In this document: piece by piece, positions 12,601-42,647 of the stretch | Numbering within the stretch: the stretch's first letter is position 1 | Layout: every line of letters starts with the position of its first letter | IMG/VR virus record: IMGVR_UViG_3300021255_002251 | Origin: a virus | Taxonomy: Duplodnaviria; Heunggongvirae; Uroviricota; Caudoviricetes | Length of the DNA: 64,000 nucleotides | Reading direction: 5' to 3' (one strand) | Program-made: the position numbers and the translations under genes | The notes under the pieces: model-generated | Seen by the model: only the letters and a program-made list of their open reading frames with translations | Databases searched by the model: none | What the model was told of the DNA's origin: nothing

Positions 12601-13739
12601 GCAACGGTAGGCTTAAGCTCTCCCAACTCCTCCAACGGCCCCAATTTGGCCGTTACAGACTCCAAACAGTTATATTCATCTGACAGAGTCAGTTTTACCA
12701 AAACTCCTCCTGCAGAAATACCCCTATATAGATAGATTTCGCCATCGTAATACCGAAGAAAAGCATCGCCGCCACCAGTAAAGGTACGGCTATCTTTTGT
12801 CCATGTCTGACTATCCGCAGAATATAAGAACGTTCCGTCTTCTGGGCTATATAATATGGCATATCCATTGACTGTTATAATTGGCGTACAAGAAAAAGTA
12901 TATTGAATATTAGACCGCGTAGTACCGTTGAGATATTGCGATTGCCCGTATTTCAACCCTGGAGATGTAGTGTTGGAACTATAGTTAACATAATACCCTT
13001 TATTATATCCTACATGCTGTGTATTAGAAACCATATAGTTGCCGCTATAGGACTGTCCGCTAGATGAAACTGCAACAGCACCATTGGCTAGCGCAAAACA
13101 ATTGTTGTTTGCCACTTCTAACCTATAATAGTCATATCCATCGCCCGATGCATGAGTCCATGTAGCCAAATCAGTTGAGTAATAGATATAGTATTGGTAG
13201 ATGATGATAAACTTGCTATTGAAGAAAATGAGGTCTTTTATCTTCTGGTCTGTAATCTGGCTTGTCTGCGTCCATGTAATTCCGTCTGACGATGAATATA
13301 GGTGTCCCGTCTCATCCGCAGGAAGCGCGACATATAGGTTGTTCCCGTAGACAATCTTTGAGAAGCGTCCTGTGGTCTGATTCGTCTGGCTCCATGTCTC
13401 ACCGCCATCCGTAGAACGATATATGCCAGAATCCGCCCTGTCATAACATAGGAAAGAAACTCCATTGGCAATGTCAAAGTAATAAACCGACTCGTTGAAT
13501 TGAGATAGAGTAGTTGGAGCGCTAAAGATAGTACGAACAATTAGCCTTCCGTTCGCATCTACTCCATTCAGAGTCAAATCCTCTACCACCTGCCCTACCG
13601 CACCTGGGATAGAAGCGATAGACTCCGGCCACTGGCTTAAGTCGTTTGTTGGCGAGACGGTTGGGTTCTTCGCTTCTATCGCAGTCTTGATGTTCGCCTT
13701 GTTGGTAATCAACTGCTGGATTTCACTAGCGATGCTCAT
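9639..13739 (-). CDS. tail fibre / receptor-binding protein: BNR (Asp-box) repeats, tandem 51-aa modules, Gly linker, C-terminal BspA-type leucine-rich repeats
   Basis: Multiple S-x-D-G-x-T-W Asp-boxes (STDGGETWSQ, YSTDGINWTQS, YSADGQTWYQV and others). A 51-aa module ..SLTPGIVPSGNINITTTAQTDVSNYATAQVVDADLVAENIKSGVEILGV.. is repeated. GSGGGGGS linker. C-terminal Cys/Tyr-rich LRRs (IPSSITVLSSYVFDNCYSLHIVSLPATMYELGTYAFRNC...). Its ATG overlaps the upstream gene's stop by 4 nt. Confidence 0.8.
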   Translation of the reverse strand: MSIASEIQQLITNKANIKTAIEAKNPTVSPTNDLSQWPESIASIPGAVGQVVEDLTLNGVDANGRLIVRTIFSAPTTLSQFNESVYYFDIANGVSFLCYDRADSGIYRSTDGGETWSQTNQTTGRFSKIVYGNNLYVALPADETGHLYSSSDGITWTQTSQITDQKIKDLIFFNSKFIIIYQYYIYYSTDLATWTHASGDGYDYYRLEVANNNCFALANGAVAVSSSGQSYSGNYMVSNTQHVGYNKGYYVNYSSNTTSPGLKYGQSQYLNGTTRSNIQYTFSCTPIITVNGYAILYSPEDGTFLYSADSQTWTKDSRTFTGGGDAFLRYYDGEIYLYRGISAGGVLVKLTLSDEYNCLESVTAKLGPLEELGELKPTVARQTYSYDSNKYIGYDSFELAPINSRTLTITPSTVSQSIGTRWWVLGSNNNTGIWQSYNITGSSPTITQTGKNNGSFLWITFARGYFLAGGQFYGTWYSADGQTWYQVSGGTANAYFYCVAYGQNRIVAGTSIGIRYSSTVTSWTLSNKQDSSWRAITYGDGIFVAGSSSSSVGLWYSTDGINWTQSNKKNDTWYSLKYGLGLFVAGSDSTGLWYSADGINWTQSNVTSGGFGALDFGSSRFIAGSNANSGLWYSTDGMTWTQSDKTDGYFSSITNNRAIPRAIKYVAASNSGLWISSNGQTWTQIASGQGVNWGAAYYPEEFIYASTVTVKPVTAAIDADITAENIKSGVEILGVTGSLTPGIVPSGNINITTTAQTDVSNYATAQVVDADLVAENIKSGVEILGVSGSLTPGIVPSGNINITTTAQTDVSNYATAQVVDANLVATNIKKDVPILGVTGTYEGSGGGGGSANAVVFYDYDGTVLHSYSASEANALTALPALPSHSGSGLTCQGWNFSLAQMKSTLQAMGTCQVGAIYTTSDGKTRAILTVRDPKFSTVKLTLTQSVVNSVSINWGDGSGATTWSGTSQTTLTHTYSPSSYPATYTIAITVNSGTLTLNRMNLADVTEESNNATTQLFAKTSMLKEVHLGSNIKIGDSAFLACQFLEHITIPSTITSVGQKAFNECSRLQSIIIPSSITVLSSYVFDNCYSLHIVSLPATMYELGTYAFRNCRSLATITLPYTISFIAGYIFYNCSALSSIVIPPNVKTIGTYAFYYCYGLVECRMSSVLTQIASYGFAYCYGLRSLVLPSTLSSLGAYAFQNCYALPINLQSLTQVSKLNNYTFFNCYAMKTCSIPSTVTSIGTYVFSGCRFETVTIPESITSISSNLFQACSALQSITFPSGITSIAAGAFNNCHGVRTFDFRKSSSVPTLGNVNAFVYTDSTKEIIVPDALYNTWKAASNWNSTTNNIVNCIVKASESSLGPLT
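11278..11583. repeat. near-identical 153-bp tandem duplication inside the tail-fibre gene (2 full copies plus partials)
   Basis: gcatccaccacctgtgcggtggcatagttcgacacatccgtctgtgccgtagtcgtgatgtttatgttcccagaaggaactatcccaggcgtaagcgaaccag recurs at 11278 and 11431. Confidence 0.8.
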
Positions 13740-16700
13740 GGTTCTTCGTTCCCTTCATTGGCATTATTCACCAAGTTGGTCCCTGTATTAATCTCATGCA
13801 AGATGTTTTCCAGATTTGCCAACTGTGCTTCCAATGCCGCAACACGATTGGATAAAGCAACTAGTTGACTATATAAGGTGTTTGTAGCGGAATCCGTATA
13901 GTTGGTAGCACCATTCGCTACCGCATAGTCCTTTGCATCGACATAAGCCCTGACTGTAGGTATGACAATATTTATCTTGTTTTCTACATGCTGGCTCAAG
14001 TTGGTTTCCCCTATCCAAAAGTTGTCTATGCCCCCAATTGGATTGATGTTGAATGAGCCTACACCATGAGACTGGTACTTCGGCAATGCAGTTATCTCAC
14101 TTGCCGACATGGCTTGGTAGTTAGTTGGATAGTAGTTCCACACGAACGCCCCTTGATTAGTGGCAGATGCGGTCGTTCCTAGCATTATTGAATTACGGGC
14201 TTCTAGTCCAGCATTATGGCCGACTCCCATCATGTATGCTTCGTCGGAAGAAGAGTTGTTGTAAGTTCCAAAGATATAGTTTAGCCTTTTGTATTCCGCA
14301 TTGTTCGAAGACCCAAGAGAAAAAGAGTTTGTCCCGAGAATATTAGAACTGCCAAGGGCAATAGATCCTTCGCCAGCGGAATTTCCAGAACCTAGGGCTA
14401 GAGAGTGATCACCAATGAAATTATTCTGTCCTATGGAAAATGAGAAAGCTCCCATGCTTCCTGTAAAACCGATGCCAATTGACCCGAATTCGGAAACAAA
14501 GTCTTCTCCTATGACTAAAGAATATGAATCGGCTGTTATGCCTAAGCCAAACCCGGAAGAAAAACTTCCCACTGTATTCTGCTCTCCAAAAACAGAAGAA
14601 AAATCACCGGCGGAAATCCCGATTCCGAAAGCCGTGCTGTGTCTCCCTATTGAATTATCATAGCCGAAGATTGCAGCGTAGTCATCTCCAGCATTTGCTA
14701 ATCCGAAAACAGCAGAACCGAATTTTACTGAATTCGTGAATTGTTCATCTCCAAAAACGATGGAGTTGGCACACCCTTCGGATACTGCACCTATAACCAA
14801 GTTGCTAAATCCGCCATCGACGTGCCACCGTACCACATTAGATATGTTAGAACTTGTAACAAGGTGGTCTCCATTAGCAATCGGCTTGTTCGTGAGAAAA
14901 TCTCTTCTGGCGGTTATAGTTCCACCGGGGACCATAAATCCTATCTCATCATCGTTATCGCTTCCCGGCTCATCGGTTGAATACTGAACACCGTTTTCCG
15001 TATAATACAATGTCCATAAGCTGCCCGTCCTGATGATATAAAGGTCCAACATACCTTGCGGTACGTTTGAGAATTTCCAATCGGAAAATCCAACCCCGTT
15101 AGTGTATACTGCCATATCCGTCTTTTGCCGCATGTTGTTGGTTGCATACGAAATATCGGAAAGATAGGCAAGCTGGGAGACGGAAACATCACCCGTCTGT
15201 TCGTCATAAGAATGGACACTCCATCTTCCGTTATAAAAGATACCGGTGTTTCCGTCCGTAAGTTCTCGGGCGGAATCCGCATTAAGTGCTTCCTCCGCAT
15301 ATTCACTATGTCCGTTGAAAAACCATAGATTATCAATTGAACTGAAATAGAAGGGGGGCATTGCGGCCTCTCCGTTGGCCGTCATGAGGGAATTTGTTAC
15401 ACGGTCTACATAGTTTGTGGCTGGCGTGAGATCTACAGTAGGTGCGCCAGTTATGACGGAATATGGGATTGAGTTTGTTGGGTATGGAAGCCTATCCTGC
15501 TTTTGAGAATCTACTGTTGTAGGCAGCCACTCAACATTATTGCTAGAAGGGGGACTGTCTCCTGGCTCGAGCGGAGCATTCGCCTTCCATAGTTTACCAG
15601 CATATGATACTACCTCTCCACGCAGATATGACTCCGACGACGACCATTGTTGATAGGCGCTAGATGCATCTAGCTTGTTGGACACTGCCATGTCCGTGTA
15701 GTTCGTAGAGGCTGTCGCCGCATTACTCACATCCGTATGCATGGCATATACTGAAAGATTTGGTGTCCCAGATATGGAAGAGTAAGGAATGGCATTAGTT
15801 GGATACGGAAGTTTCGTCTGATAGAGCGACAGGTTCGGAGTACCGCTTATCACCGCATATGGGATTGAGTTAGTTTCATATGGCAACTTATCTTGCTTCG
15901 CTGAAATTGCCGTATCCTGCATCGAGTTTGTCTCTACGGCCCTGTCAATCGTTTCTAGTATATCTACCCCGTTGACTCTGATAGAGCCCCTACTCGCGCC
16001 CTGCGATGCCCCGCTTATTGTGATTCCACCATTAGAATCATAATTGTCGTTGACAACTAAGGAGCCTCCTGCATAGTGTCCTCCTCCTATTGAAAGTTGA
16101 GGCTCTAGGAAATCCTCATCTCCGCCGATAAGAGCAAGCCGACTATTGTTGAAACTTATACCGCCATTCTGCGAAACTGGCAAATACCCTCCAAGGTCGC
16201 TCTCCAACGCAAGCGTATCTCCCGCCGTACTAACCGACGTGACCTCCCTAGAAAACGTAAATATTGTTCCTTCTATGTCCTTGACCAAATTAGTTGCATT
16301 TGAATTGCTCGATATGATATATACCGAGCTTCCTGAATATGCATACCATCCCATGCCATCCCATCCGCTTCTCCCGCCGAGTTCTTCCTCGCTCGTCACC
16401 CATACTGGGAGACCGTCAATGTCATAATTGTCGTCAGACCTCGTATACGACCAGTCCCCGAAGGTATAGTTCGCAACCGTAACCGTTCTGTCAGAATTGA
16501 TTACATTGATGCCGTCGGTGATTCTCTTTATTGACTGAGCAATAGAATCCGTATAATTTGTCCCATCCTTGGCCGCCGCGTTCACTTCCGAATGAGTAGC
16601 ATAGCCAGAAAGAGACGGAGTTCCAGAAATGGCTGCATAAGGAATAGCATTCGTTGGATAGGGAAGCCTGTCCTGCTTCAGCGAATAGATGAATACTTCT

Positions 16701-17833
16701 TCCCATGAACTTGCCGCATCCCCATTCACGGGTTCGTACACATACCCGCTAAATGTAACAACTGAACTTAAAGGGACTCTCCATAGCCTCCCAAGATGCG
16801 ACACAGTATCCCCAGGCTCGTATTCGTCGTTGGGATTCCATGCGGGATATGTAGCCGCCCCATTCAACTTCCCGCTCACGTCGGGTATCTGGTTCGTCGT
16901 GGCGAACGGGTGGCCAGCATTCTGGTTGGTTGCGGGTGGCCCGTCGTTCGTCAGCTGCGAGGTCTTTGTCGGCGTGATGAGGCGGCGTGTCGCTGTGACT
17001 CCTTCAGCCATGAACTCAACATTCAAGTCTGATTCAGAGGTGCCACTAATCTCGAAAAAATCTCCATCAGATAGCGTCAGCGTCCACGTTCCATTTGCAA
17101 AAGTCATGCTTTCAACCGTCACGCCGTCTGGGAGAACAAGCCCGCTGAACTCCCACTCCGTGAACCCCGTGTAGAGAGCCGTTCCAGTAGCCTTGGCATC
17201 GGCAGCAGATCCCGCCGTTGCATTCGTGGACGGCGCAACGACAGCCACCGCTGGGGGTATGTCGTTCGTAAGCGCGAGCTTGCCGACATAATCTTTTACA
17301 TAGATAGAATCTCTGAAAATATAACACTCAGAGTTTCCGACTTGTGTAATATTGGTAGATGTCGCACCTCCTATTTGGTCTCCTGTTATGGCCGAATATA
17401 CATTTCCTTCCTTTTCATAATATTCGACAACTGATAGGTCCTCCCATATTCCAATGTAGTAGATGTCTCTATACGGAATATCTGATACCCATCCATTCTT
17501 GTAGCCTTCTGATGATACATAATACGTCTGGAATGTCATTCTAATATAAGGAGAATATGTAGTGCCTTCAAAACTCTTGATATACCATGGCGCAAATCCT
17601 TCTTTCAACACGTTCCTCGCCGCATCTATCGTGTTCGTGCCGTCTGAAATCTTGCTTGGCTCGACATAAGATTTCAAATCCCCTAGCGTCCCAACCCCCA
17701 TATCAATATCTCCAAGCAATGTCTGGTTAGTAGCGGCATTCCCATCCGTATCTACCAATGCGCCAATAAGCATTGGCGAGCTCACAGATGCCAATGCGAA
17801 CCAAACCAATGATTTAAGAAAAGACTTAACCAT
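13736..17833 (-). CDS. second large tail fibre / tailspike-like protein (1365 aa)
   Basis: Repeated LPYPTNxIPYxxISGTPxLS modules. A Gly/Ser-rich beta-roll-like region (SIALGSSNILGTNSFSLGSSNNA...) is reminiscent of YadA-head repeats. C-terminal coiled-coil ALEAQLANLENILHEIN. Confidence 0.7.
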   Translation of the reverse strand: MVKSFLKSLVWFALASVSSPMLIGALVDTDGNAATNQTLLGDIDMGVGTLGDLKSYVEPSKISDGTNTIDAARNVLKEGFAPWYIKSFEGTTYSPYIRMTFQTYYVSSEGYKNGWVSDIPYRDIYYIGIWEDLSVVEYYEKEGNVYSAITGDQIGGATSTNITQVGNSECYIFRDSIYVKDYVGKLALTNDIPPAVAVVAPSTNATAGSAADAKATGTALYTGFTEWEFSGLVLPDGVTVESMTFANGTWTLTLSDGDFFEISGTSESDLNVEFMAEGVTATRRLITPTKTSQLTNDGPPATNQNAGHPFATTNQIPDVSGKLNGAATYPAWNPNDEYEPGDTVSHLGRLWRVPLSSVVTFSGYVYEPVNGDAASSWEEVFIYSLKQDRLPYPTNAIPYAAISGTPSLSGYATHSEVNAAAKDGTNYTDSIAQSIKRITDGINVINSDRTVTVANYTFGDWSYTRSDDNYDIDGLPVWVTSEEELGGRSGWDGMGWYAYSGSSVYIISSNSNATNLVKDIEGTIFTFSREVTSVSTAGDTLALESDLGGYLPVSQNGGISFNNSRLALIGGDEDFLEPQLSIGGGHYAGGSLVVNDNYDSNGGITISGASQGASRGSIRVNGVDILETIDRAVETNSMQDTAISAKQDKLPYETNSIPYAVISGTPNLSLYQTKLPYPTNAIPYSSISGTPNLSVYAMHTDVSNAATASTNYTDMAVSNKLDASSAYQQWSSSESYLRGEVVSYAGKLWKANAPLEPGDSPPSSNNVEWLPTTVDSQKQDRLPYPTNSIPYSVITGAPTVDLTPATNYVDRVTNSLMTANGEAAMPPFYFSSIDNLWFFNGHSEYAEEALNADSARELTDGNTGIFYNGRWSVHSYDEQTGDVSVSQLAYLSDISYATNNMRQKTDMAVYTNGVGFSDWKFSNVPQGMLDLYIIRTGSLWTLYYTENGVQYSTDEPGSDNDDEIGFMVPGGTITARRDFLTNKPIANGDHLVTSSNISNVVRWHVDGGFSNLVIGAVSEGCANSIVFGDEQFTNSVKFGSAVFGLANAGDDYAAIFGYDNSIGRHSTAFGIGISAGDFSSVFGEQNTVGSFSSGFGLGITADSYSLVIGEDFVSEFGSIGIGFTGSMGAFSFSIGQNNFIGDHSLALGSGNSAGEGSIALGSSNILGTNSFSLGSSNNAEYKRLNYIFGTYNNSSSDEAYMMGVGHNAGLEARNSIMLGTTASATNQGAFVWNYYPTNYQAMSASEITALPKYQSHGVGSFNINPIGGIDNFWIGETNLSQHVENKINIVIPTVRAYVDAKDYAVANGATNYTDSATNTLYSQLVALSNRVAALEAQLANLENILHEINTGTNLVNNANEGNEEP

Positions 17834-20089: not shown

Positions 20090-20875
20090 TCATCGGAAGA
20101 TTTGCTTGCCGGCGAAACCATTTCCCAGCATAGTGCTCTGTGGGTTCTCATATGCCCGTAGGGTCTTGTCGCTCTTCAATTCGTTCCACAGCGCTTCATA
20201 CGACTTGCGCGAATCGTAGTGTCGAAGAAGAGCATTTGTAAACTGCCCTCCTGTTGAAGCTCCATACGAATAGGTATCGTCAGGGCATCCGCTCCAGCAC
20301 AGCATCGAGAACTTCTGCTGCTCATTCAACCTATGATCCCACGATAGAGGTGGCCGAACCTTAAACCCAGGAGCGCGATACATCGTCTGCGAATGGCAAC
20401 AATCAAAGTATAGGAACACCCTCCCCTTGCTCTTGCTTATGATGCTCCATATCTCATTGTCTCGCATGTAAGTATCGTAGAGACATAGGAACTCATCCTT
20501 CCCGTCCACCTCTTCATTTCCAGTATTGTAAAACGGCTCGCTCCCTCCGTGTCCGGAATAGCAGAATATCACAAGCCCATCCGTTGCGCTTGCAATGGCC
20601 TTGTTCAATGCAGCCGTCACATTCGCTTTCGTGGCATTGGAATCTCTAAAGAGAACAATGTTCGGAGTATATGCCGATAGAAGCTTAAACATCCTATTCG
20701 CATCGTACCCCGCCCCCGGACAATCGCCAGCGAACCTCGAATTCTCCATACCAACAACCACCACATATGTGTTGGTTGATTTCGCTTCTGGCTGTATAGT
20801 TCCATCGGACTTGCATCCGCCGAATCCTAGACACATTCCAAACGCAACTAGAAATGCCATTACATGCTTCTTCAT
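20090..20875 (-). CDS. lipoprotein with caspase-like (peptidase C14) domain
   Basis: Lipobox MKKHVMAFLVAFGMCLGFGGC. Catalytic dyad context YSGHGG (His) and FDCCHSQ (Cys), as in caspase / metacaspase / CHAT folds. Confidence 0.55.
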   Translation of the reverse strand: MKKHVMAFLVAFGMCLGFGGCKSDGTIQPEAKSTNTYVVVVGMENSRFAGDCPGAGYDANRMFKLLSAYTPNIVLFRDSNATKANVTAALNKAIASATDGLVIFCYSGHGGSEPFYNTGNEEVDGKDEFLCLYDTYMRDNEIWSIISKSKGRVFLYFDCCHSQTMYRAPGFKVRPPLSWDHRLNEQQKFSMLCWSGCPDDTYSYGASTGGQFTNALLRHYDSRKSYEALWNELKSDKTLRAYENPQSTMLGNGFAGKQIFR

Positions 20876-21417: not shown

Positions 21418-22317
21418 CTAGAAAAGGAAGCCTTGGCTATATGTCTGTGCTTTCTCTTTTTCGGAGATATAATTCAGATAGAGGCTTTCAAACACCTCCT
21501 CCGTCCTGCCCTTTCCTAAGTATCTCTCGAAAGACGAATTCCCCGCATTGAGATATTCGTGGCGCTTATAAAGGCTTGTAGGAAGGTCGTATGTGCAATC
21601 CGTTTCACCCCGCTTGCCATCAAATGATAGAATCCATTTGCACTTGCGAGATGTTAGCCAATCGACAAAAGCATCAATATCTATACCTCCATAGTACATC
21701 TGCCTTTTGTGTACAGAAGCATACGGAGGGTCTAGGTAGAGGAAATCTTGGCATCTTGGTTCTAATGTTTCATATGATGCGCTCCGAAACTCTACAGACT
21801 TCGCCTTGAGAACTAAACTCCAGTCTCGACATATCTCTTTCAGTCGGACAGGGTGTATTCCGGGGCGTGAGAAATGACATGAATTATTGAACTCCCCCTT
21901 GTCGTTGTACCTCGGCATCCCATTTGTTGTAGTCCGCATTATGAAAAGGAAATCAATCGGGCTATGCTCTCTATTGTACCTGTCACGAATCGTATAGAAC
22001 ACTTCCTTTCTTCGCTCATAGTCCTCCTCACATAGCCCATGACGGTTGAATGCTTCCCACAATTCTCCATATCCATTGCATAGTTCGTCTGGATAGTCCC
22101 TTATCATGTTCCACAACCCGATAAGGTCTCTATTAACGTCAGATGCGACATATCTAGCGACCTTAACGGTAGGTGTATTAAGAAGACGATATAGTACGGA
22201 GCAGCCGCCACAGAACGGCTCATAATAGGTGGCAATCTCCCGTGGCATTCTGGCTACAATCTCCGCCGCTTGGCTTCGCTTGCTCCCGCTCCATTTGACT
22301 ATTGGCTCTAGTTGCAT
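21418..22317 (-). CDS. dam: DNA adenine methyltransferase, Dam / D12 class
   Basis: N-terminal KWSGSKRS (equivalent of Dam KWAGGK) and catalytic LYLDPPY. Its ATG shares the A at 22317 with the upstream gene's TAA stop. Confidence 0.85.
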   Translation of the reverse strand: MQLEPIVKWSGSKRSQAAEIVARMPREIATYYEPFCGGCSVLYRLLNTPTVKVARYVASDVNRDLIGLWNMIRDYPDELCNGYGELWEAFNRHGLCEEDYERRKEVFYTIRDRYNREHSPIDFLFIMRTTTNGMPRYNDKGEFNNSCHFSRPGIHPVRLKEICRDWSLVLKAKSVEFRSASYETLEPRCQDFLYLDPPYASVHKRQMYYGGIDIDAFVDWLTSRKCKWILSFDGKRGETDCTYDLPTSLYKRHEYLNAGNSSFERYLGKGRTEEVFESLYLNYISEKEKAQTYSQGFLF

Positions 22318-23138
22318 TAGAAAGCAAACTCCCCTTGGACAAGCCCCCTAATATCTATTGGCTTGTCATCCTTCGGCACGAATTCTCCCTTTAGTTCCGA
22401 ACTCTTCTCCGCCATCCCTTCCGCCATCAACCTTATCGGCATCCCATGCGCAAAGTAGCACGGAGTATACCACGGCCCCTCATACACTTCTCTCGAGAGA
22501 GAATCTTGGTGTGTGACTACAGCAGCATATCCTAGAAGAGAAAACTGGACATATGAAATGTAGCTCGCCGTAGGGTCTAAGTCTTCCCCATACAGAATCA
22601 AGTCGCATTGCCGACCGCCACTATCTATGAAAGCCTCCGCCGCTTCGATGAGCAATGCGCCGGCTCCGCAAGAGCAGTCGTTCATCCTTATTATCTTTCC
22701 AACCTTCGGGGCTTCACTAGCCATGGACATTCTCGCCATCATCCTAGCAATGCAATCGGGGGTTAGATACTGTCCAAAATGTTTGTTCGTTGCACTCAAT
22801 GCTTCATACACATGTCCTAGGAAATCGCTTCTCCTCAATTCTAGGGCCTGTACCACATAGGATAGCAGCACGGCAATCTTTCCCATTCCCTCATTGCCGT
22901 ATTTAGACACGAACGACATATACTGCTTTTCGATTTCTCCCTTTTCTTTTTCGTCCAGTGTCACAGCCCCGCTAATGGAAAGAGAGAATATCCTGCAGGC
23001 GTCGCAGAAAATAGTCCGCTGGTCTATGGACTGCGAGACGGAAGACAGAAGTTTTAGGAATGCCTTAAAGTATCCGTCCCAAGTTGTAGGCTCATCTACC
23101 TTGCGGACCGTCACCCCATTCTGCTGACTCTTTCTCAA
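22317..23138 (-). CDS. HsdM / N6_Mtase-family homolog lacking the catalytic NPPF/Y motif
   Basis: GQYLTPDCIARMMARM (motif X, GQ[FY]xTP) and DCSCGAGALL (motif I) are present. No NPPF/NPPY/DPPY follows. The ORF ends at a stop/start overlap with dam. Confidence 0.5.
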   Translation of the reverse strand: MRKSQQNGVTVRKVDEPTTWDGYFKAFLKLLSSVSQSIDQRTIFCDACRIFSLSISGAVTLDEKEKGEIEKQYMSFVSKYGNEGMGKIAVLLSYVVQALELRRSDFLGHVYEALSATNKHFGQYLTPDCIARMMARMSMASEAPKVGKIIRMNDCSCGAGALLIEAAEAFIDSGGRQCDLILYGEDLDPTASYISYVQFSLLGYAAVVTHQDSLSREVYEGPWYTPCYFAHGMPIRLMAEGMAEKSSELKGEFVPKDDKPIDIRGLVQGEFAF

Positions 23139-23542
23139 AACAATGTCTCCTCTTTGGGATTGACGTCGATCTCCTCTATCGTCTGCCCTATCTTGTCACC
23201 AAGCCATCTAGAAACAATATGACGATGACAGAATTTGTCAGGGGACTCATAACACATAAGCACCACTTTGTCTGTAGAACTCCTCTCTGCATACCTCCCC
23301 AATTTGAGCATGATTTCAGGTGCAGAAGCCATTGAAAGAATCTCCTTGTTGTACTTCTCTTCGTACACACCTGGATTGTTCTTCGCTCCAATGATTTCTC
23401 CTGTTGGCGCGAGGTCGGAAAGATACCATACAAGAAGGTCTTTGGAAAGAAACCATGGCCTAGTTCTCGCAATGCTTACAAGAGCATATCCCTTATCAGA
23501 ATATGCTTTCGCTTTTGCGAAATATCCAGTCCCGATTTTCAT
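23135..23542 (-). CDS. DUF488 (YeaO-like) family protein
   Basis: Collinear similarity to E. coli YeaO: ..KGYALVSIARTRPWF..LVWYLSDLAPTGEI...VVLMCYESPDKFCHRHIVSRWL.. Confidence 0.55.
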   Translation of the reverse strand: MKIGTGYFAKAKAYSDKGYALVSIARTRPWFLSKDLLVWYLSDLAPTGEIIGAKNNPGVYEEKYNKEILSMASAPEIMLKLGRYAERSSTDKVVLMCYESPDKFCHRHIVSRWLGDKIGQTIEEIDVNPKEETLF

Positions 23543-24330
23543 TCCTCACCCCCTTTAAGAAAAACTAGCCGTGCCTGCAGCCAAACTGGGACCTCCCTTC
23601 CCATAGCCACTATCTTCTCCGTATACCCAACATAATCAAAAGGCAACTGTCTCCACGTCACCCTTGGTATGGAATCGTCTATGATTGCATAAGTGCTATA
23701 CCTGCACAGTCTCGGATAACCAACGCTACCTACATTGAATATTGCCTCGCTCCATCCGTTTAGAGGTTGTGCAAGTCTTTTCCTAATACTTTTAGGTAAT
23801 GTCCCGTGGATAAGATTGCGGTCATCAGACGTGTTCCTTGCATACAACTCCGCTCCGTGAGTATGCCCTATGAAGAGAGCATCTATCCCGTTCTTGCGAA
23901 TCAAGTCCAGCTCCACTATTGCAGAGTAAATGGAGCCAATGTACCCGAACTGCTCCGGTATGGCATAGGTTCCGTGGCTAAATGCAACCTTTGTATCTCC
24001 AAACTGCTTCTCAATCTTGTACGGAAGGTTAGCTAGCCATTTCTTGTTCTCTTCCGTTACAAGTGGGCGATTAGATACAATGCCCTGTGCGGCATAGTGG
24101 TTGAACCAGTCAAGCGACAACTCACCTACAAGAGCAGCATCGTGGTTTCCCTTGATGCACTCTATGTCGTTCCGCTTGCAGATTTCGATGCACTCGTTCG
24201 GGTCGTATCCGTACCCAACGATGTCACCGCAGCAGATGATGTTCTTGCACCCTAGCCGCCTAGCGGAGTTGATTGCTCTCCGAAAGGCGGCAGGGTTTGC
24301 ATGAATGTCGCTAAAAACGGCTGTCTTCAC
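23539..24330 (-). CDS. calcineurin-like metallophosphoesterase (Ser/Thr phosphatase-like)
   Basis: Motifs FSDIHAN, GDIVGYG, GNHD, GHTH. Confidence 0.8.
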   Translation of the reverse strand: MKTAVFSDIHANPAAFRRAINSARRLGCKNIICCGDIVGYGYDPNECIEICKRNDIECIKGNHDAALVGELSLDWFNHYAAQGIVSNRPLVTEENKKWLANLPYKIEKQFGDTKVAFSHGTYAIPEQFGYIGSIYSAIVELDLIRKNGIDALFIGHTHGAELYARNTSDDRNLIHGTLPKSIRKRLAQPLNGWSEAIFNVGSVGYPRLCRYSTYAIIDDSIPRVTWRQLPFDYVGYTEKIVAMGREVPVWLQARLVFLKGGEE

Positions 24331-24825: not shown

Positions 24826-26136
24826 TCAAGCTCCAACTCTTTCTGTTACCAAGTTCCCGTTATGGCAGAGCAACTTGCACTTGCTCATGGCTTTCACAAT
24901 TGTCTTCCCCTCATCGCTACGGCTAAGACACACTCTGTTATCTGACCCTTTTACTGACGATACTATATATATAACTCCGTTGAACTTGACAGTATCCCAA
25001 AGAGAGAATCCACGAATCCTTCCGCTCATCTTTTGAGGTCTCCTATATCCGCACTTTAGTTCTTTAGCGGTCATCTTACTTTTGTCCTTGATTGACTTTG
25101 GAGACAAAATCGTGTTGTCATGCAGATTCCTCCTATGCCTTCTTCTCTGATACAGACGATAGACATTATATGAATTGAGAAGTGCATTAAAATTCCCTGC
25201 TATGCAGAAAGAATCGTTTCTGTGGCTTTTCTCGACATTGTGTTCCCTCCGTGCCATCGCAGTCTCATACCCATAGGTGAACTCTACTGGAGTCTTCCAA
25301 GAATTATGCACAAGTTTATCAATCAGATATTTTCGCATGGAATTCATATGTGCCTCATTTTTGTGTATAGGCGGTCTCTTAAACTTCAACACCTTCTTCT
25401 TCTGGTGATGGGATTCGTGGCATTCGTGGCACAAAGTCACCACATTGTCTGGAGAATTGCTACCGCCATCCGCCCTACGGCGGATATGATGCACCTCTAA
25501 CCTTACGGACTTGTCCTTATATGGACTTGCACCGCACACTCGGCATTTGTTCCCGTCCCGCCACTTGGCATAGGATTTCAAATTCTCCCATCCTTCCAAT
25601 GCGCCTTGCTGATACTCTTCTCCTTTGATTGATGGATTCTGTATCTTTTGAGTATCAAACTTTCCAATCTCCACACGTAATCTGCTTACTGGCAGAATCT
25701 TTCTTACGAACTCTATTGCTCGTATGTGAGAATCAGCCTTATGCTTCACAGACGGCGGGAGAGAAGCATTTCTTTCTTCGTTCGCCCTGTTCGCCCACCT
25801 CGCAGGCCTATACCAGTTGTGCTTTCTTCCTCGTCTCCCCCTCCGCATTTCCCTACGGGCAGTCAATAGATTAGACACATCATCCCGTATCTCAACTTGC
25901 GCAGAGTATAGTTCCTTCTTTTCTGTTGATGCAGTCATCCCGATGTGCTTGCTTCCAACATCGACGCCAAGAGTAACTTCTTGACGATGATGGAAACTAT
26001 CGCAAAGAAGTCGAATGGTAAAAGGCTCTCGCCGTACTACCTTCGCCCTCTTATGCTTTAGAGAATATGCAACCCACCCGAACCGTTTGGTCGGCATTAG
26101 AGGTTTGCCCTCTTTATCCTGTACGTATACTAGCAT
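24826..26136 (-). CDS. iscB: IscB-like RNA-guided nuclease (PLMP-RuvC-HNH; OMEGA / Cas9-ancestor family), 436 aa
   Basis: N-terminal VYVQDKEGKPLMPTKRFGWVAYSLK (PLMP domain). RuvC-I TLGVDVGSKHIGMTAS. Arginine-rich bridge helix ARREMRRGRRGRKHNWYR. RuvC-II-like RLRVEIGKFD. HNH CRVCGAS...LEVHHIRRRADGGSNSPDNVVTLCHECHESHH. RuvC-III KSHRNDSFCIAGN. A C-terminal beta-rich domain follows. Confidence 0.8.
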   Translation of the reverse strand: MLVYVQDKEGKPLMPTKRFGWVAYSLKHKRAKVVRREPFTIRLLCDSFHHRQEVTLGVDVGSKHIGMTASTEKKELYSAQVEIRDDVSNLLTARREMRRGRRGRKHNWYRPARWANRANEERNASLPPSVKHKADSHIRAIEFVRKILPVSRLRVEIGKFDTQKIQNPSIKGEEYQQGALEGWENLKSYAKWRDGNKCRVCGASPYKDKSVRLEVHHIRRRADGGSNSPDNVVTLCHECHESHHQKKKVLKFKRPPIHKNEAHMNSMRKYLIDKLVHNSWKTPVEFTYGYETAMARREHNVEKSHRNDSFCIAGNFNALLNSYNVYRLYQRRRHRRNLHDNTILSPKSIKDKSKMTAKELKCGYRRPQKMSGRIRGFSLWDTVKFNGVIYIVSSVKGSDNRVCLSRSDEGKTIVKAMSKCKLLCHNGNLVTERVGA

Positions 26137-30332: not shown

Positions 30333-30884
30333 TCACTCTTTGGTGAGGAAGTTGAAGAGTTCCCAACAGGCCTTTGCATCGTCAAGGGCATCATGTGAAT
30401 TCTTCGCATCCAACTGAAACACCCTAATGCAGTTGCTAAGATGATTGCCGGGGAGAATCGACTTAGGCAATTGAAGAGATTTCACGAATTCCTTTGTGCA
30501 ACATCCCATCGCCCTTTCCGGCAAATCGTCTGCAATGCCGTACTTCCTCATCATGTTCACAATCATCCGATAGTCGAAAGACAGATTGTGAGCAACAAGC
30601 AATGCCATACCCTCTTCGGATATTGTCTTCTCTATGAGTGCGAGGAAGTCCGACAGCACATCAACTGGATCAAGACCAGACTTCCGTAAAAGTTCATCAG
30701 TTATGCCATTTACTTTCTGTGCCTCAGTCCCATCAATCGGCACTTGATTTTTTAGGTAAACTGCCTTAGAGAAGAGTTCTTTTCTCTTCCTCATTGCAAC
30801 AACAGCCAACTGCACCACGTCGTCGTTATCGGTTAGTCCAGTAGTCTCTGTGTCGAACACAATGACAGTACCATTGTCAGCCAT
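30333..30884 (-). CDS. DEDDh 3'-5' exonuclease (DnaQ/epsilon-like)
   Basis: Exo I VIVFDTETTG, Exo II LLVAHNLSFD, Exo III HDALDDA. The start was chosen at the internal Met (MADNG..), just ahead of motif I. Confidence 0.75.
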   Translation of the reverse strand: MADNGTVIVFDTETTGLTDNDDVVQLAVVAMRKRKELFSKAVYLKNQVPIDGTEAQKVNGITDELLRKSGLDPVDVLSDFLALIEKTISEEGMALLVAHNLSFDYRMIVNMMRKYGIADDLPERAMGCCTKEFVKSLQLPKSILPGNHLSNCIRVFQLDAKNSHDALDDAKACWELFNFLTKE

Positions 30885-30922
30885 AACCGAATAAAGCGGC
30901 ACTCTTGCTAAATCGAACAGGT

Positions 30923-31108
30923 TCAATGCAATAGTCTCCAGATGATTCTTACAATCCCTTTTGTGATGAAAATAATGCCAATGGCTATCCAAATAACCGA
31001 CCAATATACATTGGGCGCATTAGGGTATTTGTTAGGCTTTAGTCTCCGAAACCGATTCATCGCATCGGTTTCTGACTTTGCCAACTTCTTGTACTTTGGG
31101 TTGTTCAT
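30923..31108 (-). CDS. small membrane protein
   Basis: WSVIWIAIGIIFITKGIVRIIW. Confidence 0.3.
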   Translation of the reverse strand: MNNPKYKKLAKSETDAMNRFRRLKPNKYPNAPNVYWSVIWIAIGIIFITKGIVRIIWRLLH

Positions 31109-31168: not shown

Positions 31169-32797
31169 TTAAGCCTTCTTCTTGGAATCGCCGCCGTTGC
31201 TCCCAAGCAACTTGGTTGCGAGAACTCCTCCGATTGCGGATTTCACATCAAAGCCAAGAGACTTGGAAAGTCCATCGAACAACTGCGTGGTGTGGTCGAT
31301 GACCCCTGCGGCAATCTTCCCTGACTGATCGCCATACATCGTGATGTTTCCGACCTTCGTGTAAGCGGAAGCCACTCCAGTTGCGATTGCGGGGAGAACA
31401 TTGACGAACTCCTTTACTACCTGCAACTGCAAGTCCATCTTTGCCGCTTCTCCGTACTTCGCCATGGCATCGGCTTTCTTTTCCAGGCCCTCTGCCTCTG
31501 CGATTGCCTTTGCGCGGATAGCCTCTGCCTCCGCATCGCCCTTCGCCTTGATGACATAAGCCTCATTCTCACCCTGCACCTTGTTGGCATCTGCGATTGC
31601 CTTGATTGCGGCGGCTTCGCGCTCTGCTGCAATCTGCTTCGCCTCTGCTTCCTTCGCCTGCTGGAAAAGTGCGGCATCCGCAGCGGCCTTTGTAGCATCA
31701 GCCTCACGCTCAGCCTCTATCTGGACGGCTTCAGCCTTGCGGGTTCGCTCAGCAAGTTCCGCCTCCGCATTCTTCTGTGTGGTGTAGAGACGAGCATCGG
31801 CCTCCTGCTGTGCGGCGAACTTCTCCGCTTCCGCCTTCTTGCGGATTTCGGCATCGAGTTCCTTTTCGGTGATTGCCACCTTCCTCTGAGAGAGTTCGGT
31901 CTTCTTCTCGAGTTCTATGATGCTCGCATCACCCTTCGTTGCTTCGAGAATCTTACGCTGCTCTTCCGCCTGGATCCCCTTTGCGGCTTCTGCTATCGCA
32001 ATCTGAATGTCGGCCTGCTTCTTAAGGTCGGCTTTCTTGATTTCGAGTTCGTTGTTGCGAATCGCAATCTCCGTCTCAGCCGCTACGCGGGCATCGTTGG
32101 CTTCCTTTGCAGCCTTTGCCTTGGCCTGTTCCACCTGAGCCTCCGCATTCGCACGAGCGATTGCCGCATCCTTGGAGATGGTTGCAATGTTGTCAATACC
32201 AAGGTTCTCGATCGCCTTGTCATCGTCCGTGAAGTTCTGGACATTGAACGAGACGATTTCCAAACCCATCCTCTCCAAGTCGGGTGCGGCATTCTTCTTT
32301 ACCGCCTCCGCAAACTGCTGGCGATTGAGAACCATCTCCTTGGTTGTCATTTCACCAACAATCTCGCGCATGTTGCCTTCGAGGACTTCTTTGGCATTTT
32401 CGCTGATGTATTCTGGTGAGGCATTGAGGAAGTTCATCGCCGCAAGTGCGAGCATCTGCTCTTCACGGCTCACCTTGATGTTCACGACTGCATCCACATT
32501 GACGTTGATGAAGTCCTTGTTGGGGACCTTCTGCTTCGTCTTCACGTCAACCTGAATGAGTTCGAGCGTCACCACGTCAAGGCGCTCGAAGAACGGAATC
32601 CTAAAGCCTGCCCTGCCGATAAGAGTCCGCTTTCGGAGACCGGATATGATATAGGCTTTGTCGGGCGGTGCCTTGCAATACCCGAGCGCGAACACTCCAA
32701 TGAAGAATAGAACACCAACGGCGATACCAACGATTCCCCAAGGGAAACCGCCTATTGACGATGCCGCAAAAGCGGCGGTGACTACCTGTGTGTGCAT
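31169..32797 (-). CDS. flotillin-like SPFH / Band-7 membrane protein
   Basis: N-terminal TM segment. SPFH core ISGLRKRTLIGRAGFRIPFFERLDVVTLELIQVDV. Long Ala/Glu/Lys-rich flotillin-type coiled-coil repeats follow. Confidence 0.8.
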   Translation of the reverse strand: MHTQVVTAAFAASSIGGFPWGIVGIAVGVLFFIGVFALGYCKAPPDKAYIISGLRKRTLIGRAGFRIPFFERLDVVTLELIQVDVKTKQKVPNKDFINVNVDAVVNIKVSREEQMLALAAMNFLNASPEYISENAKEVLEGNMREIVGEMTTKEMVLNRQQFAEAVKKNAAPDLERMGLEIVSFNVQNFTDDDKAIENLGIDNIATISKDAAIARANAEAQVEQAKAKAAKEANDARVAAETEIAIRNNELEIKKADLKKQADIQIAIAEAAKGIQAEEQRKILEATKGDASIIELEKKTELSQRKVAITEKELDAEIRKKAEAEKFAAQQEADARLYTTQKNAEAELAERTRKAEAVQIEAEREADATKAAADAALFQQAKEAEAKQIAAEREAAAIKAIADANKVQGENEAYVIKAKGDAEAEAIRAKAIAEAEGLEKKADAMAKYGEAAKMDLQLQVVKEFVNVLPAIATGVASAYTKVGNITMYGDQSGKIAAGVIDHTTQLFDGLSKSLGFDVKSAIGGVLATKLLGSNGGDSKKKA

Positions 32798-32838
32798 TTT
32801 TGTTTTTTCCTTTCTTGTTTGATTTTTTAATCAAATCG

Positions 32839-33135
32839 TCATTCTACAACATACCAGTCTTCAGAGAGCATGTCAGTCTGTGAAGCCAGCCAGCCTGTGA
32901 GAACCTTGAAGTCTGTGGTGAACATGCGGATTGAGCCGAGACATTCAATCTCTCCGCCTTTTGATTCAGCGAGCGCTTTCAGATGCGGATCTCTGCACCA
33001 TTCAGCCTTCACGGAAGAGGCTGGAAGAAGCCAGAGTGACATACCTTTGCCATTCCATCCTTCTCGTGCAACTCTCTTCCCTTGCTTCAGAGCACGAATT
33101 GCATCTCCAAAATCCATTAAGTTATTCTCGTTCAT
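32839..33135 (-). CDS. DUF2829 family protein (Tad2-like), copy 1
   Basis: MNENNLMDFGDAIRALKQGKRVAREGWNGKGM..EDWYVVE. The start was chosen at the internal Met of the listed ORF. Confidence 0.6.
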   Translation of the reverse strand: MNENNLMDFGDAIRALKQGKRVAREGWNGKGMSLWLLPASSVKAEWCRDPHLKALAESKGGEIECLGSIRMFTTDFKVLTGWLASQTDMLSEDWYVVE

Positions 33136-33146
33136 GTCCTTCGCTC

Positions 33147-33455
33147 CTATTCCACCACTACCCAGTCTTCGGCCAAAAGGTCGGAGTTTGTAGCAAGCCA
33201 CCCAACCATCAACTTGTTGTCGCGGGTCTTCATTACGAAAGTCCCCAACTTCTCAATTGAGGCATTTCGCCCAAATGCAAATTTTAGGTTTTCGCTCATG
33301 GCATCCATCCTTGGCAGTTTGCAGGACGGTTCTAGCCAGATGTACATGTTGGGATCGAAAGACACGATGTTGCCGTTCCATCCCTTCCTAGTCATCTTCT
33401 TCCCGACCTTGAGCAGTTTCAGGGCTTCAGAAAAGTCCATCGATCTCTCAAACAT
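33147..33455 (-). CDS. DUF2829 family protein (Tad2-like), copy 2
   Basis: MDFSEALKLLKVGKKMTRKGWNGN...EDWVVVE; a paralog of the adjacent gene. Confidence 0.65.
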   Translation of the reverse strand: MFERSMDFSEALKLLKVGKKMTRKGWNGNIVSFDPNMYIWLEPSCKLPRMDAMSENLKFAFGRNASIEKLGTFVMKTRDNKLMVGWLATNSDLLAEDWVVVE

Positions 33456-33471: not shown

Positions 33472-34656
33472 TTAGTCTTCCTGCTTCATCAAATAGCGGT
33501 TGCTTACCGCCTTGAATGAAAGATTATGGATTGTATTGCTCTTGAAAACAATCCCCTCACGCTCATTCCCCCTAGCCGTCTTGCCCTCTGCGAACATAAG
33601 GACTGCATCCATGGTAGGATATTCCGTGAATACCTTTATAGACGGGCTAATGAGCTGAACATGTTGCAACCCAAGTTTCTCACACACTTCGCGCCGGTTA
33701 TTGGGAAGCAAATACATCTGGTTCTTGATGTCGTAAATCTTGAATACATGCCATTCATGTTCCTGATACTTGTCTCTATCGGCATTTATGCCTGGTCCAA
33801 CCAGTTCTCCTTGAATCGCATATTCAAGTCCTTCGGACTCAAATAGGTTCTTCAACTTCTTCTCGACATCATACTTCTCTGCCATCTGATACCCGAGAGG
33901 AATCCCGCCTTTTGCAAGTTCCGACTTGATTCGAAGATTCCTAGTGCAAACGCCAAAAGGTATTTCAGCATCAATGGTAGGAGAGTAAAACATCGTAAGA
34001 GAAGCCCCGTCATCTTTGGCAGTTGCTTCCCAGTCCATGTCTTTGTACTTCTCAAACCAGTCACTGAGATTCTGAACCCTTTCCTCATCAGTCTTAGGGC
34101 AATAGTCAGATGGGAACCTACCAATTGCATCTGCACTAATCGGATTACTGCCAGTTATCGGTTGTAACTGCTCTTTCACCTCATCATAATGTTCTACCTT
34201 AAGCAGCCTTGTAACATCTGCCCCCAACAATGGCTGTAGAACAAATTGTCCGTTATCAGTCTCCAAGGCTATCGTATCCGTGCCGTCTCCTTTAATCCCT
34301 CCCCCCTGACAACAATAGGCGATTTCGGGAAAGTCTGATATCGGCATGACAAGTCCCTGCGACACAACTCCACGCAACTTGCATGTCTTTATCCTTATGC
34401 CTTGGCGAATAACGTTCCCGCTCTTGCTAACGAACTTCTTTAAGCATCTGTCTTTTAGGAATGCATATCGGGCATCAGAATCATCAAGAAACGAATCTAT
34501 CTCAAAATACACGGCTAAGTCGCCAACATGAAACTCTCCTTTCTGGGTAACAACCTTCCAGCCCTTACCTTTCATCTCGACCCCCTCTAGGCGGTCGGCA
34601 TTTTCTATTGGCGAAACCTTACTGATTTCAACTATGCTCGCTAGTTTTCTAGACAT
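33472..34656 (-). CDS. ATP-dependent RNA ligase with N-terminal OB-fold tRNA-binding-like domain
   Basis: N-terminal KLASIVEISKVSPIENADRLEGVEM...VGDLAVYFEIDSFL (Myf/EMAP-like). Nucleotidyltransferase motif I KDDGAS (KxDG). Motif IV/V EGIVFK. Confidence 0.6.
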   Translation of the reverse strand: MSRKLASIVEISKVSPIENADRLEGVEMKGKGWKVVTQKGEFHVGDLAVYFEIDSFLDDSDARYAFLKDRCLKKFVSKSGNVIRQGIRIKTCKLRGVVSQGLVMPISDFPEIAYCCQGGGIKGDGTDTIALETDNGQFVLQPLLGADVTRLLKVEHYDEVKEQLQPITGSNPISADAIGRFPSDYCPKTDEERVQNLSDWFEKYKDMDWEATAKDDGASLTMFYSPTIDAEIPFGVCTRNLRIKSELAKGGIPLGYQMAEKYDVEKKLKNLFESEGLEYAIQGELVGPGINADRDKYQEHEWHVFKIYDIKNQMYLLPNNRREVCEKLGLQHVQLISPSIKVFTEYPTMDAVLMFAEGKTARGNEREGIVFKSNTIHNLSFKAVSNRYLMKQED

Positions 34657-41429: not shown

Positions 41430-42647
41430 TCATCTTTTGTGCTTCTTTAGCATATACCCAGAGTTTAACATATTCAACAAATAGACAATGATAAGCATAC
41501 TTATGACGGCCTTATACCCTCCGAGATGGCTTCCTACATAAAGTGCCGCCTGATTCCCGACAAGTCCTGCCACTCCCCATGCAGATAGAACCGCTCCGTG
41601 AATCTTAGATATGTCCGACATGCCATAATGGTCTGCCAAAATACCCGGTATGACGGAAAATCCAGCACCATAGCAGGCATTGATGATAAGTAGGGCTATC
41701 CCTATTATCACTGCGCACTTAAGGCTAACCGCCATCGTCAAGAATGAGATAAGAGATATATAAATTAGGATATGCTTCCTAATAGCAAGGCGGTCGCTCC
41801 ACCATGCAAAGAAGAACCTTCCTCCGCCATTCATTAGTCCACATAACCCTATCACAAAGGTGATAGTAGATGCACGATAACCTATGTCAGGGGCATCCAT
41901 CATCTGCTTTGCCAATGGGATTAGACAGAGACCAGCAGAGATGTTAAGAAACATAAAAAGCCAAGACTGCAGAAAGAACCTATCACCTAGCAAGCGAACA
42001 TAAGAGAAAGAACTGATTGCCGAATTAACAATGTCTGCATTATTGGCTGCATCTGGCTTCCGAAGCATCGTAGATGCAATGCCCATCATGACAAGGTAGA
42101 TGACGGCGAAAGCCATCATCACGAAATACATTCCCTTGCTGTCGGTTGCTACATTGAACAAGTCATAAAGTCCTCCGATTCCGCAACACCCTTTGTATAT
42201 AATTGTCGAAAGAGTAGAACCCAACCCAAATGAAATGATTGGGACTGCAGCGGCGATAGCCTTATTGTCTGGGAACCATAGCATCATCGTCTTCACTGGG
42301 GTTATATAGATAACTCCAGTCCCTAGCCCTAGAAGAAAACCATAGCCAAGATAGATAGACCAGAGTGACTTGAAGTATATTCCGGCAGAGGTTACGGCTA
42401 GTCCCATTATGAATAGAGCCATTCCTATCATGGTGGAACGATGAATGTTCTTCTCCACAATCTTACCGAAGAATGCAGCCCCCATCCCCAAAAAGAAAAT
42501 CCCCAATGAGAATGCGAACTGCACCGCCTGCTGCGTCTCACCTATGTAAGATGCTATCTCAGAAGAGAAGTTAGTGAAAGCATAAATCTGCCCGACAGAA
42601 ACGGCGAGCAGAAATGCAGGGAGCACTGAATGAAAGAACCTTTGCAT
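41430..42647 (-). CDS. major facilitator superfamily (MFS) transporter, 12 TM
   Basis: Twelve hydrophobic segments in a 6+6 arrangement; typical MFS length of 405 aa. Confidence 0.7.
   Translation of the reverse strand: MQRFFHSVLPAFLLAVSVGQIYAFTNFSSEIASYIGETQQAVQFAFSLGIFFLGMGAAFFGKIVEKNIHRSTMIGMALFIMGLAVTSAGIYFKSLWSIYLGYGFLLGLGTGVIYITPVKTMMLWFPDNKAIAAAVPIISFGLGSTLSTIIYKGCCGIGGLYDLFNVATDSKGMYFVMMAFAVIYLVMMGIASTMLRKPDAANNADIVNSAISSFSYVRLLGDRFFLQSWLFMFLNISAGLCLIPLAKQMMDAPDIGYRASTITFVIGLCGLMNGGGRFFFAWWSDRLAIRKHILIYISLISFLTMAVSLKCAVIIGIALLIINACYGAGFSVIPGILADHYGMSDISKIHGAVLSAWGVAGLVGNQAALYVGSHLGGYKAVISMLIIVYLLNMLNSGYMLKKHKR

Follow-up and report, generated by a model that had tools for sequence, protein, structure and literature searches.

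Why should a single phage carry, side by side, two divergent members of one family of immune-signal sponges? The question is raised by a stretch of 64,000 nt (the window, by which we mean the whole stretch of DNA analysed) that matches, at 100% identity, an ENA metagenome contig 270,640 bp long. Its relatives are contigs of 192-252 kb, with one record labelled as bovine metagenome. A megablast of the 31-36 kb region against 50,697 phage records returned zero matches, and in the portal protein the identity to cultured phages is only 35%, from which it follows that this jumbo phage of ~270 kb has no cultured relative. The two genes, here termed Tad2-B and Tad2-A (B and A), and the spacer between them lie as follows:

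33147-33455, minus strand: Tad2-B, ATG start, 102 aa, PF11195 match
33136-33146, minus strand: B-A spacer of 11 nt, GAGCGAAGGAC, between the stop of B and the start of A, read from the sequence
32839-33135, minus strand: Tad2-A, 98 aa from the ATG of MNENN, PF11195 match

The initial annotation had described two adjacent small genes in this interval, following the pattern MxFxEAxxxLKxGKKxxRxGWNGxxM...EDWxVVE and about 35% identical by eye. Both genes are confirmed, at 102 aa (B) and 98 aa (A), the motif is present in each (GWNG ... EDWxVVE), and alignment gives a close value of 39% identity (41/104; E 6e-25). The ORF program extended A upstream to a GTG at 33201; the 98-aa start is that used by gene calls on identical public contigs and by all homologues. 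Against the Pfam family PF11195 (Tad2-like; cut-off 25 bits), A scored 81.3 bits (E 7.7e-23) and B 70.9 bits (E 1.4e-19), matches that are far beyond chance. PHROG matches (1048 and 872) were both to families of unknown function, and added no information. The junction of the two genes reads TAG, GAGCGAAGGAC, ATG, with the TAG stop of B and the spacer together forming a TAGGAG that resembles a ribosome binding site, and the same type of junction is found in one relative, L007 (TAG GAGTAAGAT ATG). Lying on the same strand and 11 nt apart, B and A are probably co-transcribed; since promoter and terminator scans returned the same counts as in shuffled sequence, this is argued from the gene gaps of 11-16 nt. 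Strong purifying selection acts on each gene (dN/dS 0.03-0.10 for B and about 0.08 for A), although a dS near saturation makes these values rough.

Sequence, fold and pocket residues all fully support membership of the DUF2829/Tad2 family, as initially proposed. Searches of PDB sequences retrieved only Tad2s for both proteins: with A, SptTad2 (8WJD, 5e-19), HgmTad2/AcrIIA7 (8KBI, 3.7e-16), ModTad2 (9EIB, 5.6e-14) and SPO1 Tad2 (8SME, 2.6e-12); with B, the same four at E 1.7e-11 to 4e-9, the best being SPO1 Tad2 (1.7e-11). The best solved relatives of either protein are below about 50% identity. AF2 models of A and B reached pLDDT values of 91.4 and 87.0, respectively, and for each model all 24 Foldseek matches in the PDB with E<=1e-3 were Tad2 chains (TM 0.80 to 8wjd for A, up to 0.75 for B). 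The models predict the Tad2 fold for both, with a helix at the N terminus, an antiparallel sheet and, between β2 and β5, an insertion that varies among members. Tad2 proteins assemble as homotetramers, in which two pockets at the interfaces capture TIR-made signals, and the targets of different homologues include 3'cADPR, His-ADPR, N7-cADPR, cyclic dinucleotides, or cUMP/cCMP. This is the most functionally versatile sponge family known at present: in experiments, its members have proved to counter different systems among Thoeris I, II and IV, CBASS and Pycsar (PMC12393519).

Pocket residues were mapped by aligning both proteins to the four Tad2s of known structure and transferring published contact residues. 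For SPO1 Tad2 these are W25, N26, W73, D79, T78, I63 and T65 (10.1101/2023.05.01.538930). HgmTad2 possesses a gcADPR site (W21, N22, G23, M76, A78, V84, W87, L88, S90, T92, D93) and a cyclic-dinucleotide site (R31, P32, D34, L36, K46, S47, F70, T71, N85), with R31, S47, F70 and N85 mutationally essential for cGG/cGAMP binding; its flexible β1-β2 loop shuts over gcADPR, and the β2-β5 insertion of dinucleotide-binding Tad2s spans 35-41 residues (PMC10680739). On this mapping A keeps the entire gcADPR site, its GWNG and GWLASQTDML motifs being the same as in HgmTad2, and B keeps W26, N27, G28, M75, W86, L87 and D92, together with two conservative changes (S90 of HgmTad2 to T89 of B, and T92 to S91). 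By these transferred contacts, the residues of the canonical gcADPR pocket are kept in both proteins; models lacking the Tad2 pocket would, according to the initial annotation, have refuted its reading, and with the canonical residues retained in A and B this refutation does not apply. The equivalents of R31, S47, F70 and N85 are L, A, C and T in A, and E, N, K and V in B, and the β2-β5 insertion measures 30 residues in A and 29 in B. Owing to these short insertions and the replaced dinucleotide-site residues, A and B are placed outside the dual-pocket HgmTad2/SptTad2 subgroup.

These features also bear on whether one copy might have a role other than that of a sponge, either as an anti-CRISPR, as was proposed for AcrIIA7, or as a degenerate and non-functional gene. 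AcrIIA7 is itself a DUF2829 protein, and is matched by both A (E 3e-15) and B (1e-9); however, its anti-Cas9 activity (AcrIIA7/HgmTad2) was not reproduced by Li et al. (PMC10680739), and both genes of the pair have intact pockets and low dN/dS. We consider such a role highly improbable.

A and B differ in the loop predicted to close over the pocket. The β1-β2 lid loop of B is lengthened, directly after GWNG, by an insertion of six residues (I30-P35, within NIVSFDPN); it spans 14 residues in B vs 8 in A (GWNG-NIVSFDPN-MY vs GWNG-KG-M) and has reduced pLDDT in the AF2 model of B. Within the B clade the insertion is nearly invariant (N29, S32, F33, P35 and M37 are invariant), and the adenine-contact position equivalent to T92 is occupied by S, T, Y or A. 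Among the sequences inspected, an insertion at this lid site was seen elsewhere in only one protein, the unrelated P0220. From the longer lid and the variable adenine-contact residue we infer for B a change in ligand preference or affinity, through which the pair would cover more signals than either protein by itself.

The two proteins also belong to clades of very different extent. A is a member of a widespread 'KAEWC / GWLASQTDML' clade: 7,983 of 8,000 candidates matched it at E<=1e-5, all of the 120 matches listed were at least 70% identical, and an A-type protein 83% identical to A was found in an unrelated phage contig of 51 kb. A word-indexed search of 5.8 billion proteins recovered only 29 B-type proteins, 67-90% identical, which form two clusters at 50% identity and make up the B clade. 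An exhaustive search of 1.84 billion cluster representatives with a B profile identified two clusters, the first at E<=1e-30 and the second at 3e-29, followed at 3e-18 by a generic Tad2. Scans of metagenome contigs and IMG/VR with B yielded nothing beyond one contig of the family that had been found otherwise. On these searches the B clade appears to be very narrow and confined to this jumbo-phage family.

This divergence is informative with respect to dosage or redundancy, under which A and B would share one gcADPR signal, the second gene serving simply to raise the copy number of the sponge. The core gcADPR pocket is common to A and B, and by the estimate of Li et al. a functional gcADPR site is missing from only about 1% of the family (PMC10680739). 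Sequestration is stoichiometric, with two protomers per ligand, so that the quantity of sponge matters, and the sponge must build up before the signal is made (Yirmiya et al.). Indeed, the core pocket of B may be conserved enough for it simply to bind gcADPR as A does. A recent, near-identical copy would nevertheless be expected under dosage, whereas A and B are of different clades and identical at just 39% of positions; each is maintained by strong purifying selection, the lid insertion of B is conserved, and B alone suffices in most relatives (see the arrangements below). Dosage is, in our assessment, an unlikely account of the pair.

To place the pair in context, we surveyed how often two Tad2 genes occur together. 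Among 80 IMG/VR loci retrieved by the A-type profile, 79 possessed a single Tad2 gene within ±5 kb, and the remaining locus showed a weak, partial second match. Tad2 matches were found in 328 of the 50,697 phage records, at 352 places, and of 60 records sampled evenly over the 328, multiple places were seen only in that of Bacillus phage BceA1 (three by tblastn). BceA1 (P60, P61) and vB_BtS_BMBtp3 (gp74, gp75), both cultured phages of the Bacillus cereus group, have DUF2829 genes annotated next to each other, each scoring above the Pfam threshold:

L024:2762-3264: adjacent PF11195 genes of BMBtp3
L176:2262-2767: adjacent PF11195 genes of BceA1

In the upstream copy of BMBtp3, SIWGGY replaces GWNG and the pocket tryptophan equivalent to W73 is lost, which suggests a diverged function. 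Same-family Tad2 pairs are rare, yet with precedent. No paper on tandem or paralogous Tad2 or DUF2829 genes, including the BceA1 and BMBtp3 pairs, was found in the limited literature covered, an absence that is not proof. Five further loci (L134, L149-151 and L159) were considered as tandem-domain Tad2s and rejected, their two HMM matches representing one domain split by the variable insertion; some of them carry N-terminal extensions.

The genomic setting of the pair was then compared across the phage family. On the minus strand of the window the order is NrdD, NrdG, a 640-aa gene, three small ORFs, RNA ligase, B, A, SPFH/flotillin and RNase T exonuclease. The RNA ligase, exonuclease and methylases that the initial annotation named as neighbours are all real, and the relevant features are:

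33472-34656, minus strand: RNA ligase, with Pfam PHA02142 OB-fold and RNA_ligase domains, upstream boundary of the hotspot
32798-32838, minus strand: intergenic sequence separating A from the SPFH gene, marking the downstream limit of the inserted cassette (junction comparison)
31169-32797, minus strand: SPFH/flotillin-like protein, 542 aa, Pfam Band_7 E 5.7e-24, downstream boundary of the hotspot
30333-31004: RNase T-type exonuclease, neighbouring gene
21418-23138: two DNA methyltransferases, neighbouring genes

The SPFH gene adjoins the Tad2 locus in every family member examined, and in more distant phages, with SPFH proteins 41-49% identical, zero Tad2 genes were found within 6 kb of it. 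In the family as a whole, seven cargo arrangements were found between the ligase and SPFH genes, some of them with a third type of Tad2, C:

B-A: this window and L164-166
261-aa ORFan, then B-A: L007-9
260-aa ORFan, then B: L003-6, L013 and L168-171
B alone: L167 and L172-175
C (155 aa)-B: L001-2
C, then ORFan, then a divergent B: L014
C alone: L015

Genes of type C, all three of which exceed the PF11195 threshold, were located at the following positions in relatives:

L001:5509-5976: C-type Tad2
L014:1863-2222: C-type Tad2
L015:5646-5948: C-type Tad2

In this type the pocket motifs are altered, with GWHHG for GWNG and GWNPLPCD for GWLASQTD, and the L001 protein has a 58-aa N-terminal extension with no Pfam match.

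Comparison with the closest relative resolves the junctions of the A gene. Both L003 and L013 are without A, though their SPFH proteins are 98% identical to that of the window (98.2% for L003). Between the window and L003, the B proteins are 90% and the ligases 55% identical; at the DNA level, identity is 85% across B and 96.5% from 32862 downward, in a blastn block aligning 32862-31107 of the window with 6286-8045 of L003. The intergenic stretch 3' of A is homologous to that directly after B in L003, which indicates an insertion consisting of the 11-nt linker and the A gene, placed right after the stop of B. A local duplication, one sense of the term tandem paralogs in the initial annotation, is not supported: A belongs to the other, widespread clade and is missing from the closest relative. 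Cassettes have been gained or lost here by recombination; A is an accessory cassette exchanged in this way, and B the resident copy. Given the varied cargo and the rise in identity where A meets the SPFH gene (85% to 96.5%), the ligase-SPFH site is a recombination hotspot for Tad2 cassettes. It has the features of an anti-defence hotspot, with variable counter-defence cargo between conserved boundary genes.

Several further observations concern the hotspot and its edges. The RNA ligase of the window is ~55% identical to the ligases of relatives with SPFH proteins 92-98% identical, and is shorter (394 aa vs 402-437 in relatives); the low identity and reduced length are a sign of mosaic replacement beside the hotspot. 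An ORFan of 256-261 aa with no Pfam match, missing from this window, lies between ligase and B in several relatives (L003:5219-6001, with equivalents in L004, L007, L168 and L169), and may be another cargo gene. Also identified near the hotspot in some relatives were IS605 OrfB/TnpB (Cas12f-like) genes (L003:8182-9390 and L173:74-1348); that of L003 is inserted between the SPFH and RNase T genes, and is not present in the window.

The distribution of arrangements also bears on whether A and B assemble into mixed tetramers, whose asymmetric interface pockets would bind a ligand that neither homotetramer binds. Such an assembly would be compatible with genes 11 nt apart on one strand and with the formation of Tad2 pockets between protomers. 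However, B occurs alone in most family members and A-type genes alone in 79/80 sampled loci, and the characterised sponges are all homo-oligomers (PMC12265669). We rate such co-assembly of A and B as decidedly unlikely.

Elsewhere in the window, a number of genes and features were recorded in their own right:

9639-13739 and 13736-17833, minus strand: consecutive ORFs of 1366 and 1365 aa with a 4-nt overlap
20090-20875, minus strand: caspase-like Peptidase_C14 protein (E 2e-16), of note as type IV Thoeris uses a caspase-like effector
21418-24330, minus strand: cluster of a Dam-like D12 methyltransferase, an N6_Mtase, a DUF488-N3a protein and a metallophosphoesterase, which may act in DNA modification or counter-defence
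24826-26136, minus strand: 436-aa protein with RRXRR and HNH endonuclease domains
41430-42647, minus strand: 405-aa Major Facilitator Superfamily transporter, between unknown genes and DnaG primase, an unusual phage cargo
50567-52627, minus strand: array of 15 tRNAs (Ile, Gly x3, Ala x2, Met, Pro, Thr x3, Arg x3, Val)

Taken as a whole, the locus is best explained by two functional Tad2-family sponges, situated at a hotspot and jointly covering more signals than one, a reading that we hold with a probability of roughly 0.7 and above those of dosage, mixed tetramers or a non-sponge role. By homology, A and B would each form a homotetramer with two canonical pockets at protomer interfaces, and these pockets would bind TIR-made, NAD-derived signals such as 3'cADPR, 2'cADPR, or relatives including His-ADPR and N7-cADPR. 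Sequestration of the signal would in turn leave Thoeris-type effectors inactive. A, with its standard pocket, is a predicted gcADPR sponge, and B, with its modified lid, is probably a sponge of shifted ligand preference or affinity. The initial annotation had suggested that divergent copies could broaden signal specificity; this is plausible for the pair, fitting both the published diversity of Tad2 and the lid insertion of B. A bolder version, conceivable but less likely than not, is that the B clade and the C type are tuned to TIR or other immune signals that no characterised sponge covers, or that mixed A/B tetramers form. If this were true, the locus would represent a combinatorial 'sponge rack' supplying related phages with different Tad2 sets, matched to the signalling repertoire of their hosts.

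A locus at which close relatives exchange two or three Tad2 clades offers natural material for mapping the sequence features that determine ligand choice, for which the β1-β2 lid loop is the main candidate. Further, the B and C variants could serve as baits for unknown immune signals from rumen bacteria. The modest novelty of these results lies in a Tad2 clade that is uncharacterised, restricted to one lineage and marked by a lid insertion, and, to a similarly modest degree, in a hotspot that holds several clades of the same sponge family in a different phage group. Sponge combining and anti-signalling hotspots are both already documented, and the locus represents no new mechanism and no new kind of system.

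Among known systems, the best solved relatives of A are SptTad2 (8WJD) and HgmTad2/AcrIIA7 (8KBI-8KBM), at Foldseek TM scores of 0.80 and 0.78, respectively. Both have the same predicted fold and the same GWNG and GWLASQTDML motifs as A, but their β2-β5 insertion is of 41 residues vs 30 in A, and with R31 changed to L, S47 to A, F70 to C and N85 to T relative to HgmTad2, a cyclic-dinucleotide pocket is not predicted in A. SPO1 Tad2 (gp34.65; 8SME/8SMF/8SMG), the founding member and a 3'cADPR sponge, is a small phage protein like A and B, and equivalents of its W25, N26, W73 and D79 are kept in both. It differs from B in that the lid loop is six residues longer in B, T78 and S76 are replaced in B by S and T, respectively, and its insertion domain comprises 24 residues vs 29. 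ModTad2 (9EIB/8V3E), a sponge of His-ADPR and cUMP, has the same predicted fold as B (TM 0.71) and, like B, a serine at the T92-equivalent position; unlike B, it has WTPSVSD in place of WLATNSD and lacks a lid insertion.

With regard to gene pairs, BceA1 and BMBtp3 resemble the present locus in possessing two neighbouring PF11195 genes, a canonical and a divergent copy. These are small temperate siphoviruses of Bacillota, unlike this jumbo phage, and the divergent copy of BMBtp3 is without core pocket motifs, whereas here both copies keep the core pocket. Closest in organization are the anti-signalling hotspot of N4-like phages, which includes Tad2 among its cargo (bioRxiv 10.64898/2026.06.04.730250), and the Tad2-Acb4 and Tad2-Sequestin fusions (PMC12265669), in which, as at this locus, several sponges are brought together at one site or in one protein against several signals. 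Those systems combine different sponge families, whereas here two or three clades (A, B and C) of a single family are combined. The hotspot described here also belongs to another phage lineage and is bounded by RNA ligase and SPFH genes, and thereby extends the idea of anti-signalling hotspots from N4-like phages to an uncultured jumbo phage.
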